A model generated the notes under the pieces. It ran no database searches and was not told the origin of the DNA. It was given only the letters and a program-made list of their open reading frames with translations. Below are positions 3,652 to 63,977 of a DNA stretch of 64,000 nucleotides, piece after piece. Numbering within the stretch: the first letter of the stretch is position 1; each line of letters starts with the position of its first letter. The position numbers were made by a program, and so were the translations under genes. The stretch comes from a virus, in IMG/VR virus record IMGVR_UViG_3300050821_004478; one strand, written 5' to 3'.

Positions 3652-3974
3652 GCGACTCTCTTCTCATTGTACCAATTGGAGTACCTCTTGACCCGCATCA
3701 AGATATAATCGGGAAGCACACGCACCTCTTTGCAAAGCGGGAGAATTTCACGCCGCCAACTAATGACGCACGAGATTGTATTTGCGGAGGCGGCAAGATT
3801 GGTGCTACGAGCCGCTCGTTGATCGCTAACTGCCCATGCTGCGACGGTGTGCAGCTTTTAGTTGTGGATACTTGTGATTGCGATGACCCGAGTTTCATCA
3901 AATTTCGAGCGGTACTGCCGCCTGATATGAAGATGAGAATCAGGCGCATTGAGACAGCGGAGCCGATATGCTAA
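3648..3974 (+). CDS. Cys-rich hypothetical protein
   Basis: ATGA overlap; CICGGG, CPCCDG and CDCDD clusters. Confidence 0.5.
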   Translation: MSDSLLIVPIGVPLDPHQDIIGKHTHLFAKRENFTPPTNDARDCICGGGKIGATSRSLIANCPCCDGVQLLVVDTCDCDDPSFIKFRAVLPPDMKMRIRRIETAEPIC

Positions 3975-4753
3975 AAGATATTACCATTGTCATTCCGACC
4001 TTCCACCGCCGAGGCTATCTGCGGGACTGTCTCGATGGGATTCAAAAGAACTTGCCTGAGTGTCAAGTGAGAATTGCGCAAGACGATGATGGCGACTGCA
4101 CGCTGGAACAAAGCGCATACAACACGTATTATTGGGCGAAGCTGCCGTACGACAGCGGTCTCACCGCGAAGCGCAACGCGGCGGTTAGATTAGTGGATAC
4201 GCAATATACATTAATGGGCAGCGATGACTTCGACTTTTCTACGCCAGAAGTACGAGAAGGTATCATCCGGATGGTCCGGATACTGAAATCATCCGAGATC
4301 GATATAGGGCGAGAGATCGACGTGGTCGCCGGAAGGGTCAATGACCGCTCTTACGAAGGATTCCTTGAGTACGTCCCAGGTGAGTATATCAAAGAGCACG
4401 CTCTTCGCAATGAACTTCCGTTCAGGTTGAAGCCGTTCGTGCTGTGGGAGATCGATATCGCTGCGAATTACTTCCTGGCCCGCACCGAAGTTCTACGAGC
4501 TATGCCGTGGGACGAGAGCATTAAGCCAATAGGAGGGGAACATGCGGATTGGTTCCTCGACTTAAAGGAAGCGGGCATGAAGGTAGTATTCTCATCGCCG
4601 TATGCAAATATCAATCAGATACCGTACGACGCGAGCAAGCAGCACCCGGATTACAACAAACTTCGCTGCCGCGCTGTTACGACCGGCCACGCGCTGATGA
4701 TGAAGAAGCGCAACATCAAGCACTACTACGGATTTGATGAGCAAGTAAAATAG
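3968..4753 (+). CDS. glycosyltransferase, GT2-like (GT-A fold)
   Basis: ITIVIPTFHRRGYL N-terminus and a GSDDFDF DxD-like motif. Confidence 0.6.
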   Translation: MLKDITIVIPTFHRRGYLRDCLDGIQKNLPECQVRIAQDDDGDCTLEQSAYNTYYWAKLPYDSGLTAKRNAAVRLVDTQYTLMGSDDFDFSTPEVREGIIRMVRILKSSEIDIGREIDVVAGRVNDRSYEGFLEYVPGEYIKEHALRNELPFRLKPFVLWEIDIAANYFLARTEVLRAMPWDESIKPIGGEHADWFLDLKEAGMKVVFSSPYANINQIPYDASKQHPDYNKLRCRAVTTGHALMMKKRNIKHYYGFDEQVK

Positions 4754-4959: not shown

Positions 4960-5912
4960 TGGACCTCGTCCTTTTCCACCAAAATTGTCCTGATGGTTGG
5001 GCGGCGGCCTACATCTGCAAGATGAAGTATCCGGAAGCAGAACTGTTGCCGCTGAATCACGGTCTTAACGATAACCAGCTTAATTCGCTATTCAATATCT
5101 GCGCAGGCAAAGATGTCATCATGGTTGACTACTCGCTCCGCACTCGTGAGTTGAATGACCAACTAAATTTGGTCGCGAAATCGTTCCGCATCCTCGACCA
5201 CCACAAGACAGCCCAGGCTGCGCTCAACGGCGCAGAGTACGCCACATTCGACATGAAACGCTCGGGCGCGGGACTTGCGTGGGATTATCTCTTCGGCAAA
5301 GATTGTAAAGATCGTCCCGCTCAGAGTTTGGATAAACCGGGCGGCGTGATGTATATGTTTGAATCGCGTCCGTGGTGGGTGAACTACACCGAAGATCAAG
5401 ACCTCTGGAATTGGGCGTTGCCTGATTCACAACTCATCAACGCGTGGCTGATGGTTCAACCACGTACTATGGAAACGTGGGATATTATCCAAAACAAAAT
5501 TTCCGCAAACGACGCGCGACGCAGCGGTATGGGCGTCCGCGAATACATCGAATACTATACCCGCTCCGTAGTCGCGGAGGCGCAGGAAGGTGTGTTCGAA
5601 GGCTACAAGACTGGCGTACTAAACATCCCGTACGTCGGAGTAAGCGAGGCAGGCGCGGCGCTGATCGACAAGGGCTACGATATCGGCTTACTGTGGTTCG
5701 AACGCGGCGACGGTATCACGCAGTTTTCTCTCCGCAGCTTACACAGTGGCAACGTAGACGTGAGTGCAATTGCAAAGAAGTACGGGGGCGGCGGCCACGG
5801 AACAGCCGCAGGCTTCCAGCTATCTATGCCGGAAGGCCGCATTTTAGTTGACAAAATTCTGAATCGAATCACTTACACCACATTCGTTCAGCCAGGAGGA
5901 TGTGTAAAATGA
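4959..5912 (+). CDS. DHH/DHHA1-family phosphoesterase (NrnA/RecJ-like)
   Basis: HQNCPDG, MVDYS, LDHHKT (DHH) and GGGGHGTAAGF (DHHA1 GGGH) occur in order. Confidence 0.8.
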   Translation: MDLVLFHQNCPDGWAAAYICKMKYPEAELLPLNHGLNDNQLNSLFNICAGKDVIMVDYSLRTRELNDQLNLVAKSFRILDHHKTAQAALNGAEYATFDMKRSGAGLAWDYLFGKDCKDRPAQSLDKPGGVMYMFESRPWWVNYTEDQDLWNWALPDSQLINAWLMVQPRTMETWDIIQNKISANDARRSGMGVREYIEYYTRSVVAEAQEGVFEGYKTGVLNIPYVGVSEAGAALIDKGYDIGLLWFERGDGITQFSLRSLHSGNVDVSAIAKKYGGGGHGTAAGFQLSMPEGRILVDKILNRITYTTFVQPGGCVK

Positions 5913-48080: not shown

Positions 48081-48767
48081 CTATTGTCCGAGAACTTCCT
48101 GATCTTCAAGGCTAGAGTAACATTTGCCGTTACGCTTTTCCCAAAGAGAGCGGAAATATCTTGCGGAGATTGCATTGGGTGATGGTACCCCAAAAATTTT
48201 GTGGCACTGTACTTCTGTGATGATCTCTTTCTCGACAAGTTGGATTGCTACCGTGCGCCAACCGCGCGACTCTTCCCCATCGGGAATGCCGTGGCTGTCT
48301 AGTTTCAGTACGCTCCACTCCCACATTGAGGGAACATCCATGAAACAGACTGCGCGTAATTTCTTAGATTGACCTGGGGGAGAACACCATAGTCCAACGG
48401 TCGGGATTCCGCCGCGCCCTATCCAGCCAACGTCTGTGATAACGGTCTTCAACCCGTTCGCGTGCAACTTGTCGACGAAATTTCGGGTACTGATCTTGTT
48501 GATCTGGCGGGCCGCTTTGTTAGTCAGGTCTTCCTGATCGTCCCACTTGTAGGCCGCTGCCATTCGGTTCGAGATGTCTTTCTCGGCGGCGAACGATTCC
48601 TTCACGAACGACTTGTAGTCGTTGGGCCACTTGACCCAATTCGGAGTGCCGTCCGCCAACATCTGGCGAATGGCTTGATGCGTCGCATCTACATCGTGGT
48701 GCTCATTGAATGGATTCTCAACGTCGGGGCCTTTGATGAAAGGCTGGTCCGGAGTTTGGATGGTCAT
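48081..48767 (-). CDS. hypothetical protein (228 aa)
   Basis: Long ORF immediately after the GIY-YIG gene. Confidence 0.55.
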   Translation of the reverse strand: MTIQTPDQPFIKGPDVENPFNEHHDVDATHQAIRQMLADGTPNWVKWPNDYKSFVKESFAAEKDISNRMAAAYKWDDQEDLTNKAARQINKISTRNFVDKLHANGLKTVITDVGWIGRGGIPTVGLWCSPPGQSKKLRAVCFMDVPSMWEWSVLKLDSHGIPDGEESRGWRTVAIQLVEKEIITEVQCHKIFGVPSPNAISARYFRSLWEKRNGKCYSSLEDQEVLGQ

Positions 48768-48781
48768 TGGTATTGTCCTTT

Positions 48782-49378
48782 TTATTGTGCTGCTCGACGA
48801 CGCTGCTGTGATGCTCTCATCTTCTGCTTCGTTTCTTCTGATGCCTTCTTGCCTTTGTGGGAATCGGACATTCGCTGGCGCGCTTCGTCAGTACGTTTTG
48901 CGCCGACATGAACGGCCATCAGTTTCTGAAAATTGTCTTCGGACATCTTCCTACCGAGAGCGTATTTGTTACCCATGCTACGCTGAGATAACTTCTGTCG
49001 ATGGCTCTCTGGCATCACCAGTCCGATACGAGACGCGGACATCTTGGCGCGGGTTTCTTTGCTCATCTTAACTCCCAGAGAGCCGTTCCCGCCGTGCGTA
49101 ATGTTATACCCCTTCTTGGGGTCCGTGGTGTCCCATGATTTAATCAAGCCAATTTCGTACAGGTCCATCTCTTGCTTTGTTCCGACAATAACAAGAGGCT
49201 TCACCTCAAATCCGTCAGCGCCGTACTTTCGAATCGCGCGATAGAGAAGGCGCTTACCTTGATAGCCCGTTTCGGCTAACCAAACATTCCTGCGCCAATA
49301 GGACTCCAAATCTATACCGGCGTGTTGTCCAACGTATTTCTTGCCGTTCTTCTTGTTTGTAATCAAATAGACTATCAT
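48782..49378 (-). CDS. GIY-YIG homing endonuclease (I-TevI/Seg-like) with NUMOD3-like repeats
   Basis: VYLITNKKNGKKYVGQ, RRNVW, YGADGF, EIGLI and GYNITHGG, then repeated S.E.R.KMS motifs. Confidence 0.9.
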   Translation of the reverse strand: MIVYLITNKKNGKKYVGQHAGIDLESYWRRNVWLAETGYQGKRLLYRAIRKYGADGFEVKPLVIVGTKQEMDLYEIGLIKSWDTTDPKKGYNITHGGNGSLGVKMSKETRAKMSASRIGLVMPESHRQKLSQRSMGNKYALGRKMSEDNFQKLMAVHVGAKRTDEARQRMSDSHKGKKASEETKQKMRASQQRRRAAQ

Positions 49379-49380
49379 TT

Positions 49381-49433
49381 ACTCTCCATGAAAGAGTGAT
49401 TGAGGGGTGTGTTCATGGCACACCCCATCAATC
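49381..49433 (-). promoter_or_regulatory. 5' leader with two hairpins; the second pairs with the Shine-Dalgarno sequence
   Basis: On the minus strand, a 15-bp stem GAUUGAUGGGGUGUG/CACACCCCUCAAUC, then ACUCU-uucaugg-AGAGU overlapping GGAGAG. Confidence 0.6.
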
Positions 49434-49436
49434 TTA

Positions 49437-49465
49437 ACCTTAACGCGCGTTGCAACGCTTGTCAA
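49437..49465 (-). promoter_or_regulatory. sigma-70-like promoter (TTGACA-17-TAAGGT) for the GIY-YIG gene
   Basis: Homologous to the promoter at 55504..55532. Confidence 0.55.
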
Positions 49466-49501
49466 GGGAAAAGTTTTCACTCGTTACTGAATAGCAGGCC
49501 A

Positions 49502-49699
49502 CTTGTTACCGCTTTCGCGGGGCCGGTCATTTCTGCCGACCTCTTACAGTTTTGTTTCCTGTAAGAGCAGACTATCGCATCGCCCCGAAGGGCGTTCGCT
49601 CGCTTAGTCGTTCACGGTGCCTTTCGGCTTCCGCCTTGTTAGCATTTCAGCTTCCAAGTCAATCAGAGCAAATTATCTACTAGCAGATTACGCTGCTAG
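49502..49699 (-). ncRNA. structured RNA element, copy 1 (unclassified)
   Basis: At least 7 helices. Two GAAA loops and one UUCG tetraloop appear only when read on the minus strand. Paralogous to 49802..50006 with compensatory changes. Confidence 0.6.
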
Positions 49700-49801
49700 G
49701 AGTCCATATTGAACGCTATCAATGTAACGAATACGCTGCGTGTTGACGCCAGTTGCGGGCGGCAAAGTCACGGTTTGGTGAAACTTGTAACTGCACCCAA
49801 T

Positions 49802-50006
49802 CTTGTTAACACTTTCGTGTACCGAATCATTTCTGTTCGGTTCATACGGTTTGTTTCCCGTATGTTCAGACTATTGCATCGACCTATTGTCAGAAGGTCG
49901 TTTTCTCGCTTAGTCGTTCACGGTGCCTTTCGGCTTCCGCCTCGTTGCCGTTTCAGGTTTCGAGTCAATCAGAGAAAATTTACTGTGGCCTATGCTGTTA
50001 AGCCAC
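49802..50006 (-). ncRNA. structured RNA element, copy 2 (unclassified); its first helix spans the capsid stop codon
   Basis: Same architecture as copy 1; a 37-nt core is identical between the copies. Confidence 0.6.
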
Positions 50007-50925
50007 CGATGGTAGATACGGGGTCGAAGCTCGATGCCGGTGCGTCTGTGACCACTCGACAATCGATTGTCTTCCAATCGCCGTCATCGAGGTCTGTGTC
50101 GCCCGGGACCTGAAGCCACACACCGATCATCGCGTAATTGCCGAAGACGTATGTGCGGTAGCCGATCTTGCCGGTGCCGCTGTAGTTAGCGGTGGTTGTG
50201 ACGAACGGAGTCTGCATGAAGCCGATGTTGGTGCCCGGTAGAACAATGACCTTGTTCTGGTCGCTGCCTGCCATCGCATCAAACTTCTCCATGTTCTCGT
50301 ACTTCCACAAATCCGCGATGCTGTTGTTCACAGTCGTGGCGTTGTAGATGTCGCCCAACACGTTGGGGCTGATTGCGCCTAGGAACATACCGCGCTTGCA
50401 AGGCAACACGTTCTTTGAAACAAGCTGCTGCTTCAATTCACGGATGGTGCCAAGGTCAAGCGTGAAAGGTGACGCCAGCAAGCTGCTCTGGTTAACCTGT
50501 GAGTCCACGCCGGACGCGCTGTCAGCAACTGCGCTGTACAGTTCGCTGATCGATTGCCCAGCTTGGTAGCCGAGTTCGACTGCGCTGTTGCCGACCAACT
50601 CGTCAATCGCCGCTGCAATCGCGAACGAAGAAAAGTTGGCATAGTTGTTCCACTCACCGATCTGAGCCGGTGAGCTAAGCTGGCTGATGACTTCCGGGTT
50701 GCCCACGGTGCCGTCAGAATTCTGGATGATGTCACCAGATAGCGTGTTGTACTGGAAAAACGTACGGTTCACGCCCATGTGGAGACCCTGCACGCGACGT
50801 TCAGCAGCGCCAACGAATGCGTTGGTGTTGCCCTTCAAGTTCGGGATGAGTTCCTTATCGAAGATGATCGCTTGCGCGGTTAATACGTTTGCTACGTTTG
50901 ACCCTGATGGGTTCGGACCACTCAT
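49990..50925 (-). CDS. major capsid protein candidate (HK97-fold type)
   Basis: 311 aa, immediately after the scaffold-like gene in a terminase-portal-scaffold-capsid order. Composition is typical of capsid proteins. Confidence 0.75.
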   Translation of the reverse strand: MSGPNPSGSNVANVLTAQAIIFDKELIPNLKGNTNAFVGAAERRVQGLHMGVNRTFFQYNTLSGDIIQNSDGTVGNPEVISQLSSPAQIGEWNNYANFSSFAIAAAIDELVGNSAVELGYQAGQSISELYSAVADSASGVDSQVNQSSLLASPFTLDLGTIRELKQQLVSKNVLPCKRGMFLGAISPNVLGDIYNATTVNNSIADLWKYENMEKFDAMAGSDQNKVIVLPGTNIGFMQTPFVTTTANYSGTGKIGYRTYVFGNYAMIGVWLQVPGDTDLDDGDWKTIDCRVVTDAPASSFDPVSTIGGLTA

Positions 50926-50968: not shown

Positions 50969-52291
50969 TTATCGAATCTGGATACCGTAGGCTTGAAGTT
51001 GTTTGACGAATTGAGGGTCCGTCTTCAACTTAGCTCTCATTACTTTCGGGTCCATATCCTTTACGGTCTTTAGGAATTCCTTCCTCGCGAGTGCTGGGTC
51101 TGGCGTTCCCGGTCGTTGTGCGCTCAACGAACCCGGAGGCAAGCCTCCATTCACTCCCGGACGACGGGCGGGTACTGGCACATTAGGTGCCGCCGCAGAC
51201 GTCGCTACCGTTGCTTCAACCACAGGCTGACTAGGCACTGCTGGCTGGGCTGCTACTATAGGTACTGGCACTGCAATTGGCGTTTCCGCGACCGGGATTA
51301 CCGGGGGAGCGGGCGTTGCTGCAGTGGCTGCTGGGACCGGATTAGGGACCACAACAGCTTGTCTCGTTGCCACGGTTTCCACCTTGGCAAGTTTGTCACC
51401 CTGTTCCAAAAGGTCCTGAAACGCGGCCTCAAGGTTATCATGGGTAAGTTCAAGATTGTTCTCTACAAAATAATCATTCATTGCCTTCTTATTGGCATCG
51501 CACGGGTTATAGTCATGCAAGTGATGACGCATCCACTGGTTTGAAATGGCGCGGCCCGTTTCGTAGGCTTCTTTGTTCTTCAGTTCAGTTTCACGCTTCT
51601 GATAACTGCTCTCGATGGTGGCGTGAATCACATCGGTGATCTTTGATGAATCCTTTTCTTCCAAAGCAACGCGCGCTGCTTCCGCGATTGCCTCTGGGGA
51701 CAAAATTGTTTTCTCTTGCTTGAATGACAACTTCTGCTGTTTCAAGCGATGAAATGCGCGGGTCGCCTGGACGTGGACTTCTCGCTTCTTCGCTGCGAGT
51801 TCAACCAACGTGCGCGCTTCCAAGTGCGTCGGACGACCGATGTTTTTACCATCTTCTCCGGTAACTTGGTATTCTTCAATGTAACGGGTCGCTTTGCCTT
51901 GCGCGTCACGAACGATTGTTACGCCTGCGGCCAACCACTCTGCATCTTCCGCTTCGTGATTGTTGACTACCGGAACTGCTTTCGGAATATCGTCAGTTGG
52001 CATATCAGCGGGCAGTGGCGCATTCATCGCTATCGCTTCTGCTGTTGCCGCTGCCATCTTTGCGGCCTCTGCTGCGAGTTCTTCTGTTGATGGGGGAATC
52101 ACACGATTCAACTGCGCATCAACTGCCTCTTCTCGGTTCTGGGCCTCCAACATCAACTCAGATACACGAGATGCAACCACACGATCTCGAAGGAGTGACT
52201 GCATATCCTTGGACGTGGTTGGGTCTTTCACGGCTGCTAGAATGGACTTCAAATCCATCTGCAGCACAACTTCGCGAGTGATTGCACTCAT
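50969..52291 (-). CDS. scaffolding protein candidate
   Basis: Located between portal and capsid; helical, charged, with an Ala/Pro-rich tract. Confidence 0.55.
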   Translation of the reverse strand: MSAITREVVLQMDLKSILAAVKDPTTSKDMQSLLRDRVVASRVSELMLEAQNREEAVDAQLNRVIPPSTEELAAEAAKMAAATAEAIAMNAPLPADMPTDDIPKAVPVVNNHEAEDAEWLAAGVTIVRDAQGKATRYIEEYQVTGEDGKNIGRPTHLEARTLVELAAKKREVHVQATRAFHRLKQQKLSFKQEKTILSPEAIAEAARVALEEKDSSKITDVIHATIESSYQKRETELKNKEAYETGRAISNQWMRHHLHDYNPCDANKKAMNDYFVENNLELTHDNLEAAFQDLLEQGDKLAKVETVATRQAVVVPNPVPAATAATPAPPVIPVAETPIAVPVPIVAAQPAVPSQPVVEATVATSAAAPNVPVPARRPGVNGGLPPGSLSAQRPGTPDPALARKEFLKTVKDMDPKVMRAKLKTDPQFVKQLQAYGIQIR

Positions 52292-63129: not shown

Positions 63130-63204
63130 TGGTTGCCTGATTTGGATTCGGACCAAAACTTCCGCTTTCAGAGAGCGGCGTGCTACCGGTTGCACTATCT
63201 GGCA
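63130..63204 (-). tRNA. tRNA-Gln(CUG)
   Basis: Manual cloverleaf of 7/4/5/5 bp with anticodon loop CUCUGAA and an encoded CCA. There is one A:A mismatch at 5:68, and the T-loop is UCCGAAU. Confidence 0.7.
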
Positions 63205-63302
63205 ATTGAAATAAAAGTCGTCCCTACTAAGGCGATGGGGTCCTTTTCCTCCGAGGTCACATCGCGCTGCTTCCTCAAAGTACCAGACCGACGACCCGAG
63301 AT

Positions 63303-63377
63303 TGGTTGCTCATGAAGGACTCGAACCTTCATCTTCGGATTCAAAGTCCGAGGTCCTCCCAATTAGACGAGAGAGCA
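63303..63377 (-). tRNA. tRNA-Gln(UUG)
   Basis: Anticodon loop CUUUGAA, T arm GAAGG-UUCGAGU-CCUUC, CCA encoded. Acceptor pairs 6:67 and 7:66 are mismatched. Confidence 0.6.
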
Positions 63378-63385
63378 ATAGAAAC

Positions 63386-63459
63386 TGGTCCCGAGCCACC
63401 GAGTCGAGCGGTGTCTTCTCCGTCTTCAGCGGAGGGTGCAACCCTTACACCTGCAGGGG
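63386..63459 (-). tRNA. tRNA-Phe(GAA)-like
   Basis: The D, anticodon (CUGAAGA) and T arms fold, and CCA is encoded. Acceptor pairs 4:69 and 5:68 are mismatched, and the T-loop is CUCGACU. Confidence 0.5.
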
Positions 63460-63460
63460 A

Positions 63461-63646
63461 TTAAATAAGTTCAATAGTAAATGCGTGTGGGTTTGAGAAC
63501 TCACCATACTTACAGGTGACTTTCAGTTTTCCCAAATCAAACTGTGTGAACGTAAACTCATGAGGCAGCAAGTTATGAGAAATGAATTGTTGTTTCAGTT
63601 CTCGAATCAATGAGACGTCGATTTTATCTGCCTGCTCTTGAGTCAT
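63461..63646 (-). CDS. hypothetical protein (61 aa) embedded in the tRNA array
   Basis: ATG 63646 follows GAAGGAA. The longer track ORF would run through tRNA-Ser. Confidence 0.4.
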   Translation of the reverse strand: MTQEQADKIDVSLIRELKQQFISHNLLPHEFTFTQFDLGKLKVTCKYGEFSNPHAFTIELI

Positions 63647-63661
63647 TGTTGTTCCTTCAAA

Positions 63662-63748
63662 TGGCGGAGAGCCAAGGAGTCGAACCCTGTCACGCGTGAG
63701 CGTGTCTCTGTTTTCAAGACAGTTAAGCACCGTTGCTAGCTGCCCTCC
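63662..63748 (-). tRNA. tRNA-Ser(UGA)
   Basis: Type II tRNA with a 17-nt variable arm (CACGC-ucac-GCGUG), anticodon loop CUUGAAA, G73 and CCA. Confidence 0.8.
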
Positions 63749-63891
63749 GTAAAATTTGCCCGTTACAGATGAGTCCTCCTCGTGAAGGTCATCACCCTAA
63801 GCTCCCACGGGTCCGAGGCATGATCGCGTCGCCCGGGTAACGTCCTTCTAGTCCGGCAGCACCACGCGATGGAACAACATCAAGATTAAAT

Positions 63892-63977
63892 TGGCGGAAC
63901 GAGAAGGAGTCGAACCTTCACGACCTCTCGGTCGCAAGTTTAGCAAACTTGTCCGGCTACCGTTTCGGCACCGTTCC
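63892..63977 (-). tRNA. tRNA-Ser(GCU)
   Basis: Type II tRNA with variable arm CGACC-gaga-GGUCG, anticodon loop UUGCUAA, T arm GAAGG-UUCGACU-CCUUC, G73 and CCA. Confidence 0.85.

Follow-up and report, generated by a model that had tools for sequence, protein, structure and literature searches.

Two predicted group I introns at the 3' end of a phage capsid gene

The 3' end of the capsid (major head) gene in a 64,000-nt stretch of viral DNA (the window; IMG/VR virus record IMGVR_UViG_3300050821_004478) very probably carries two ORF-less group I self-splicing introns of one family, 86 nt apart (probability roughly 0.93, judged from sequence comparison). The original prediction for this region was of two tandem RNA elements of an unrecognized class, lying between the capsid gene and a GIY-YIG gene. 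The two paralogous minus-strand copies are confirmed (approximately 49495-49710 and 49800-50010, alignable over about 205 nt), as is the 611-bp gap from the stop of the capsid ORF (49990) to the start of the GIY-YIG ORF (49378). The intergenic location, however, does not hold, as the elements sit inside the capsid gene, whose true stop is at 49486-49484, and the shared core that could not be matched to any RNA class, GGCACCGUGAACGACUAAGCGAG, corresponds to P6'-J6/7-P7-J7/3-P3' of a group I intron. Group I introns in phage genes are already known; both elements are additional cases and represent no new RNA class. The transcript would run in the order exon 1, intron 1, exon 2 (86 nt), intron 2, exon 3 (15 nt), and the corrected annotation has a head gene of 341 codons in three exons where a 311-codon ORF and 611 bp of "intergenic" sequence had been given (Table 1).

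Table 1. Coordinates of the capsid exons, predicted introns, their helices and the neighbouring genes, in the order of transcription (^, splice site; slashes separate paired arms)
Feature	Position	Strand	Description
Portal protein gene, SU10-type, 700 aa	52738-54840	-	Pfam PF23899, 3e-15; upstream of capsid gene
440-aa ORF	50969-52291	-	without family match; upstream of capsid gene
Capsid exon 1	50001..50925	-	codons 1-308 and first base (U) of Trp309
Predicted group I intron 1, 203 nt	49798..50000	-	UAACAGC ... UAACAAGAUUG; terminal G 49798
Intron 1 P1	49985..50006	-	GUGGCU^UA / UAGGCCAC; U(50001)·G wobble at 5' splice site; predicted fold
Intron 1 P3 pseudoknot	49901..49978	-	UUUUCUC (49978-49972) / GAGAAAA (49907-49901)
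Intron 1 P4	49964-61/49944-41	-	
Intron 1 P6	49940-37/49923-20	-	
Intron 1 P7	49868..49917	-	A[C]GACUA (49917-49911) / UAGUCU (49873-49868); putative guanosine-binding helix
Intron 1 P8	49900-49896/49884-49880	-	enclosed by P7
Intron 1 P9, P9.1 and P9.2 together	49809..49864	-	peripheral hairpins
Intron 1 P9	49864-58/49849-43	-	
Intron 1 P9.1	49840-34/49829-22	-	GAAA loop
Intron 1 P9.2	49820-17/49812-09	-	GAAA loop
Capsid exon 2, 86 nt	49712..49797	-	GG of Trp309 and CSYKFHQTVTLPPATGVNTQRIRYIDSV
Predicted group I intron 2, 213 nt	49499..49711	-	CAAUAUGG ... UAACAAGUGG; terminal G 49499
Intron 2 P1	49702..49714	-	GUU^CA-AUA-UGGAC, 5 bp; U(49712)·G wobble; minimum-free-energy fold
Intron 2 P2	49680..49699	-	CUAGCAG-CGUAAU-CUGCUAG; P2 in intron 2 only
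Intron 2 core	49509..49672	-	P3, P4, P5, P6, P6a, P7, P8, P9, P9.1, P9.2
Intron 2 P3	49672-66/49601-595	-	UUUGCUC / GAGCGAA
Intron 2 P7	49611-05/49574-69	-	
Intron 2 P8	49594-81	-	CGCCC-UUCG-GGGCG
Capsid exon 3, 15 nt	49484..49498	-	CCU GCU AUU CAG UAA = PAIQ and stop
Free-standing GIY-YIG/NUMOD3 homing-endonuclease gene, 198 aa	48782..49378	-	
Conserved next gene	48081-48767		after GIY-YIG ORF

Exons and reading frame of the capsid gene

The capsid ORF as called (50925..49990, minus strand, 311 aa) is, by comparison with its homologs, a truncated version of a 341-codon gene. A protein search with this ORF found 277 relatives, and among the 120 matches listed most are 341 aa long; these longer homologs terminate ...STIGGWCSYKFHQTVTLPPATGVNTQRIRYIDSVPAIQ. 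Excising 50000..49798 (203 nt) and 49711..49499 (213 nt) yields a 1026-nt CDS from three exons that is colinear, free of gaps, with the 1026-nt intronless genes of related loci L022-L032. The product of exon 2 is identical to the C-terminal region of the 341-aa homologs, and exon 3 matches their C-terminus, with variants in L017, L001 and L013 that are synonymous, so that PAIQ and the stop are kept throughout. The introns split the last 33 codons of the head gene across the three exons. Intronless forms of the gene are common, 42 of 66 de-duplicated related loci being counted as such (with a few loci miscounted).

The exon junctions can be placed at the level of the codon. Trp309 is rebuilt solely by the junction GGCU^..UUG^GGUGC, and because this residue is available only as the U that ends exon 1 plus the GG that starts exon 2, the limits of intron 1 are fixed exactly. 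For intron 2, the junction GUU^..UGG^CCU restores ..DSV-PAIQ-stop; two registers are equivalent here, and the one written GUU^CAAU...GUGG^CCU gives a U·G wobble at the splice site. The predicted ligated-exon sequences are GGUGGCU^GGUGCAG and GAUAGCGUU^CCUGCUAU. Both introns contain early in-frame stops, UAG at 49992-49990 in intron 1 and UAA at 49690-49688 in intron 2. The first of these is the stop that the original prediction had placed within the first helix of the copy at the higher coordinates; it does lie there, in the P1 loop of intron 1, but is an in-frame UAG and not the genuine stop of the capsid gene.

Comparison with intronless alleles shows purifying selection on exons 2 and 3. 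Over the 99 nt for residues 309-341 (the end of exon 1, exon 2 and exon 3) there are 11-28 differences from the intronless alleles, most of them in third codon positions, and only 0-3 amino acid changes, and the C-terminal 33 residues are nearly invariant across the capsid family. Since exons 2 and 3 are translatable only once both elements have been removed, they are selected as coding sequence.

The identity of the host gene as a capsid gene rests on annotation at 36% identity, that of its nearest isolate protein, the major head protein of Tunturiibacter phage Tunturi_3, and on a similar portal-to-head gene order in that phage. The protein belongs to no family in Pfam or PHROGs, PDB sequence and profile searches returned spurious kinesin matches only, and AlphaFold2 did not confirm the capsid fold (pLDDT 30, from a shallow alignment).

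Group I fold, covariation and intron anatomy

Both elements fold far better than their shuffled versions (z = -4.8 and -4.2; none of 200 shuffles did as well in either case). Their longest shared run is 38 nt (49599-49636 and 49905-49942; originally given as 37 nt), and they contain a direct repeat of 88 nt at 88% identity with a spacing of 306 nt. Every helix originally listed is present in the predicted folds, with compensatory changes between the copies, and the structure is specific to the minus strand because of its G·U pairs, as in the conserved first pair of P6. That list was nonetheless incomplete, missing P3, P5, P6 and P7, the helices by which the fold is identified. Its first entry matched two helices that both exist but are not functionally equivalent: GUGGCU/GGCCAC in one copy is P1 of intron 1, with the 5' splice site, whereas CUAGCAG/CUGCUAG in the other is P2 of intron 2, whose real P1 is a short hairpin upstream (GUU^CA-AUA-UGGAC).

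The elements follow the same order in both copies: P1, (P2), the P3 5' arm, P4, P5, P6/P6a with a GAAA loop, J6/7 and the P7 5' arm. From this arm, A[C]GACUA, the sequence continues through J7/3 (AGC), the P3 3' arm, P8, J8/7 (AUGC(A/G)A) and the P7 3' arm (UAGUCU), after which come P9, P9.1, P9.2 and a tail, UAACAAG plus 3-4 nt, that leads to the final G. All helices of the P4-P5-P6 and P3-P8 domains, with the P3/P7 pseudoknot, are present in both copies; in intron 1, the P3 arms enclose P4, P5, P6, P6a (GAAA loop) and the 5' arm of P7.

A covariance model was made from only the two window copies, using nested helices with P3 left out, and was used to scan 21 loci retrieved by the conserved core and 80 retrieved by the capsid protein. 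It gave 71 matches across those loci, of which 54 are distinct. The helices are preserved among these 54 relatives, with 97.2% of cells pairing (26-40% when partners are slid by 1-3 columns) and double changes in 38 of 43 pairs. P3, absent from the model, pairs in 98.9% of cells and covaries at 7 of 7 pairs; a column-by-column pairing scan rejected the register UUUUCU/AGCGAG for this helix and gave UUUUCUC/GAGAAAA as the correct one. An independent MAFFT alignment of 20 diverse members, analysed with RNAalifold, recovered P3, P4, P5, P6, P6a, P8, P9 and P9.1, with 29 of 39 pairs compensated. A bulged base precedes the P7 core GACU/AGUC (G-C, A-U, C-G, U-A), and 52 of 52 distinct relatives keep this core unchanged; the outermost P7 pair covaries between AU and GC. 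The joining regions, like P7, are conserved among the 54 relatives, and compensatory changes keep every helix intact.

The intron boundaries in relatives are of the same kind. Each confidently placed junction allows a solution in which the intron follows a U and ends in G; the window introns end ..AUUG^ and ..GUGG^, and the terminal G of relatives usually lies 3-4 nt past UAACAA(G/A). The P1 guide covaries with the exon at the intron 1 site (GGCU/GGCC in the window vs GGAU/GUCC in L043, L003 and L009), while exon UUCCAU pairs with GUGGAA at codon 316 and exon ACCU with GGGU at codon 30. All sites examined retain the U·G wobble in P1.

Model R1 scores intron 1 at 222 bits. Same-site orthologs of this intron occur in L009 (91% identity), L043, L051 and L003. 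A candidate P10 would pair its loop GCAU with GUGC of exon 2 (4 bp), and by eye the L043 ortholog could form 7 bp. The terminator-like call that a scan made for 50006-49985 was dismissed, since this span holds the P1 hairpin and the U-rich P3 5' arm comes after it.

Intron 2 scores 215 bits with model R1, and its same-site orthologs are in L003/L017 (98-100% core identity), L001 and L013. Its P1 is very short, with 3 of the 5 bp formed with the exon. L001 and L013 share this hairpin, and the GGAC guide recurs in L016, L018 and L019, always after exon GUU, which describes a sub-lineage with a very short P1 (GUU^CA-NNN-UGGAC) and then P2. No convincing P10 with the 3' exon was found for intron 2 by sequence comparison that included the orthologs. 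The likeness between exon 3 (CCUGCUAU) and the P2 3' arm (UCUGCUAG) was considered as a P10 and is treated as chance because the orthologs do not keep it. A recent local duplication was likewise rejected as the source of the tandem pair, because the two cores are only 78% identical and each is nearer to same-site introns in other contigs.

From this anatomy we infer catalysis and splicing in vivo. Each intron would fold to a group I core made of the P4-P6 domain, the P3-P8 domain and the P3/P7 pseudoknot. Exogenous guanosine, bound at the conserved G-C pair of P7, would attack the phosphate after the U of the P1 U·G wobble, the freed exon end would then attack past the terminal G of the intron, and two such splicing events would produce an mRNA for the full 341-aa protein. 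It might be supposed instead that the elements are decayed relics that no longer splice, leaving a head protein truncated at 311 aa or ending in intron-encoded residues; the early in-frame stops in both introns, and the minimal P1 of intron 2 with no clear P10, would fit this reading. This is very unlikely, given the conserved joining regions and P7, helices kept by compensatory changes in 54 relatives, a nearly invariant stretch of 33 C-terminal residues, and purifying selection that persists on exons 2 and 3, which can be translated only after splicing.

Rfam detection, insertion sites and hosts

A whole-window Rfam cmscan at gathering scores gave no group I match, and a search of 49300-50100 (801-nt query) at E<=10 gave none either, returning only sR16, mir-567 and DUF805b at chance level. 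RF00028 had zero matches in 15 related loci, and blastn against isolate phages gave a single short match, to an unannotated metagenomic phage. The Rfam comparison proposed with the original prediction does lack a confident match, but this comes from a blind spot in RF00028 and does not mark a new class. In L120 (a Clostridia MAG), RF00028 finds two introns (5357-5667 and 1651-2008) and misses an adjacent member of the present family (5065-5249), and so the miss is a sensitivity gap and not a difference in kind. RF00028 is a detection aid of limited sensitivity, not a defining property of group I introns. Because this compact family goes undetected by the standard Rfam model in the loci tested, phage genes split in this way will be annotated as truncated in metagenomes.

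The want of an Rfam match, together with the position upstream of the GIY-YIG ORF, would also suit a novel class of cis-regulatory or small RNA in the capsid 3' UTR, acting on expression of the capsid or GIY-YIG gene. Such a class is highly improbable here: the elements interrupt coding sequence at exact codon-level positions, their fold is the group I core, and their relatives are inserted at about a dozen or more places along this gene, including N-terminal ones, often with no GIY-YIG gene nearby.

The sites at which group I introns of this family interrupt the capsid gene lie near codons 21, 30, 273, 288, 306, 308/309, 312, 314, 316, 320, 334 and 337. One contig (L003/L017/L101) has both of the window's sites occupied and the GIY-YIG gene present. 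Introns with the GGAC guide are found only after GUU^CC, at codons 273, 314 and 337 (L013; L016/L018/L019; window 49712/49498), and the intronless alleles L024-L057 have GTTCC at exactly these codons; GTTCC is also present at codons ~181 and ~236, which are unoccupied in the loci retrieved. A second sub-lineage, with a GGGU guide, is inserted after CCU^A at codons 30 and 312. This pattern suggests that the guide sequence constrains or directs the choice of insertion site. A tentative extension, which we regard as possible and rather doubtful, is that introns move between sites by guide-directed ectopic (reverse-splicing-like) insertion and are spread by the adjacent free-standing GIY-YIG endonuclease. 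If this is true, intron transposition and collaborative homing would have left a natural record at the capsid 3' end in these soil phages.

Scanning bacterial genomes for the motif finds the same intron family in many MAG contigs. The best matches are a Bryobacterales MAG (L107:5650-7323, on a 209-kb contig), with the same capsid at 78% amino acid identity and three family introns, and a Terriglobia MAG (L135:2860-3318) with two family copies. An Acidobacteriota host is likely on the basis of these Bryobacterales and Terriglobia contigs and of the Tunturiibacter phage homolog.

Two further arrangements were noted among the relatives. In a Deltaproteobacteria MAG (MGRR01000113; L117:3885-4400), a full-length Rfam tmRNA match (4072-4400, minus strand) is followed 35 nt downstream by a family intron on the same strand (3885-4037, R1 81 bits), which may be in or beside the tmRNA gene. 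At capsid codons ~21-30, several loci (L045:1955-3001, L047, L077, L088 and L019) carry N-terminal insertions of 0.8-1 kb in which two model matches flank an ORF with an HNH-like motif (..VISWRANKLKSDA..); these could be single introns that carry an endonuclease, or endonuclease genes with an intron on either side.

The GIY-YIG gene and known intron systems

The GIY-YIG ORF matches Pfam NUMOD3 (1.2e-8), Pfam GIY-YIG (2.6e-4, at 21.6 bits vs a cutoff of 22.6) and PHROG 314 "homing endonuclease" (1e-34). Only some related loci have this gene, an optional insertion that separates the capsid gene from the conserved gene that follows; it is found beside some intronless capsid alleles and is missing at many intron-bearing ones. 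Introns occur in 10 of 15 loci with the gene vs 14 of 51 without it (Fisher p = 0.012, uncorrected for phylogeny and with a few loci miscounted). A role for the neighbouring free-standing endonuclease in intron spread, through cleavage of capsid alleles that lack introns, is a tentative possibility.

Twin-ribozyme introns combine tandem ribozymes with a homing-endonuclease gene, an arrangement superficially similar to the one in the window. By that resemblance, two ribozymes followed by a homing-endonuclease gene might be group I-like ribozymes with a role other than splicing, such as GIR1-type branching that processes or caps the endonuclease mRNA. We give this almost no credence: the window has no Rfam GIR1 match, both P1 helices place their U·G wobble at an exon junction, each element ends in a terminal G, and the ORF is rebuilt by their removal. 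Moreover, ~105 nt and a separate hairpin separate intron 2 from the endonuclease start, and most family members have no downstream endonuclease gene.

As self-splicing introns, the two elements resemble cases already described. Splicing has been shown for group I introns in the capsid gene of mycobacteriophage LittleE and a tail gene of BAKA (PMC3706429), and a group I intron in the capsid gene of lactococcal phage Tuc2009 is cited in the same paper. Shared with LittleE and BAKA are the location in a highly expressed virion gene, an exon 1 that ends in U and an intron that ends in G, intronless alleles in close relatives and the existence of ORF-less forms (BAKA, 265 nt). Unlike those cases, the window has two ORF-less introns of the same family 86 nt apart with a 15-nt terminal exon, its relatives carry the family at about a dozen or more sites of one gene, and its splicing is predicted from sequence.

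The Jug jumbo phages have abundant group I introns of ~206 nt and stand-alone endonuclease genes, with splicing backed by metatranscriptomes (PMC12880540), and Staphylococcus phage Twort is cited as having a three-intron gene (in PMC6669764). The present family is like these in its compact, ORF-less introns of ~200 nt, in having several of them per gene, and in the stand-alone HNH or GIY-YIG genes that go with them. The window phage differs from Jug in being of another lineage (from soil, and probably infecting Acidobacteriota), and the Jug introns were found by subtype-specific models (PMC12880540).

Collaborative or trans homing of ORF-less introns by free-standing endonucleases has been reviewed (PMC3984707) and is represented by mobE of phage T4 (PMC2790892). 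The window shares with it an ORF-less intron in a conserved gene and a free-standing homing-endonuclease gene close by, yet here the GIY-YIG gene also adjoins intronless alleles and many intron-bearing alleles are without it. The association of GIY-YIG gene and introns is compatible with collaborative homing (PMC3984707) and is not evidence for it.

The points of note in the family are its density of insertion sites in one gene, the relation of guide to target motif, the 15-nt terminal exon and its invisibility to Rfam. The family has a single conserved core, is inserted at about a dozen or more places in one gene, and has intronless alleles to match; its many natural variants could be used to ask how a ribozyme guide is retargeted to new sites, and how free-standing endonucleases cooperate with ORF-less introns.

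Several further features were seen on the minus strand of the window. After the capsid stop, at 49460-49465, is a CTTGACA(C/A) motif that recurs likewise in L017, L001, L013, L107 and L071; it may be a -35 element for the downstream gene or genes, and a simple sigma-70 scan called no promoter at this motif. Between the capsid stop and the GIY-YIG start, at 49409-49437, lies a GC-rich hairpin, GGGGUGUG-CCAUGAA-CACACCCC, which no U-tract follows and which might reduce read-through or influence endonuclease translation. Rfam identifies three tRNA genes close to the window's end, at 63133-63977.
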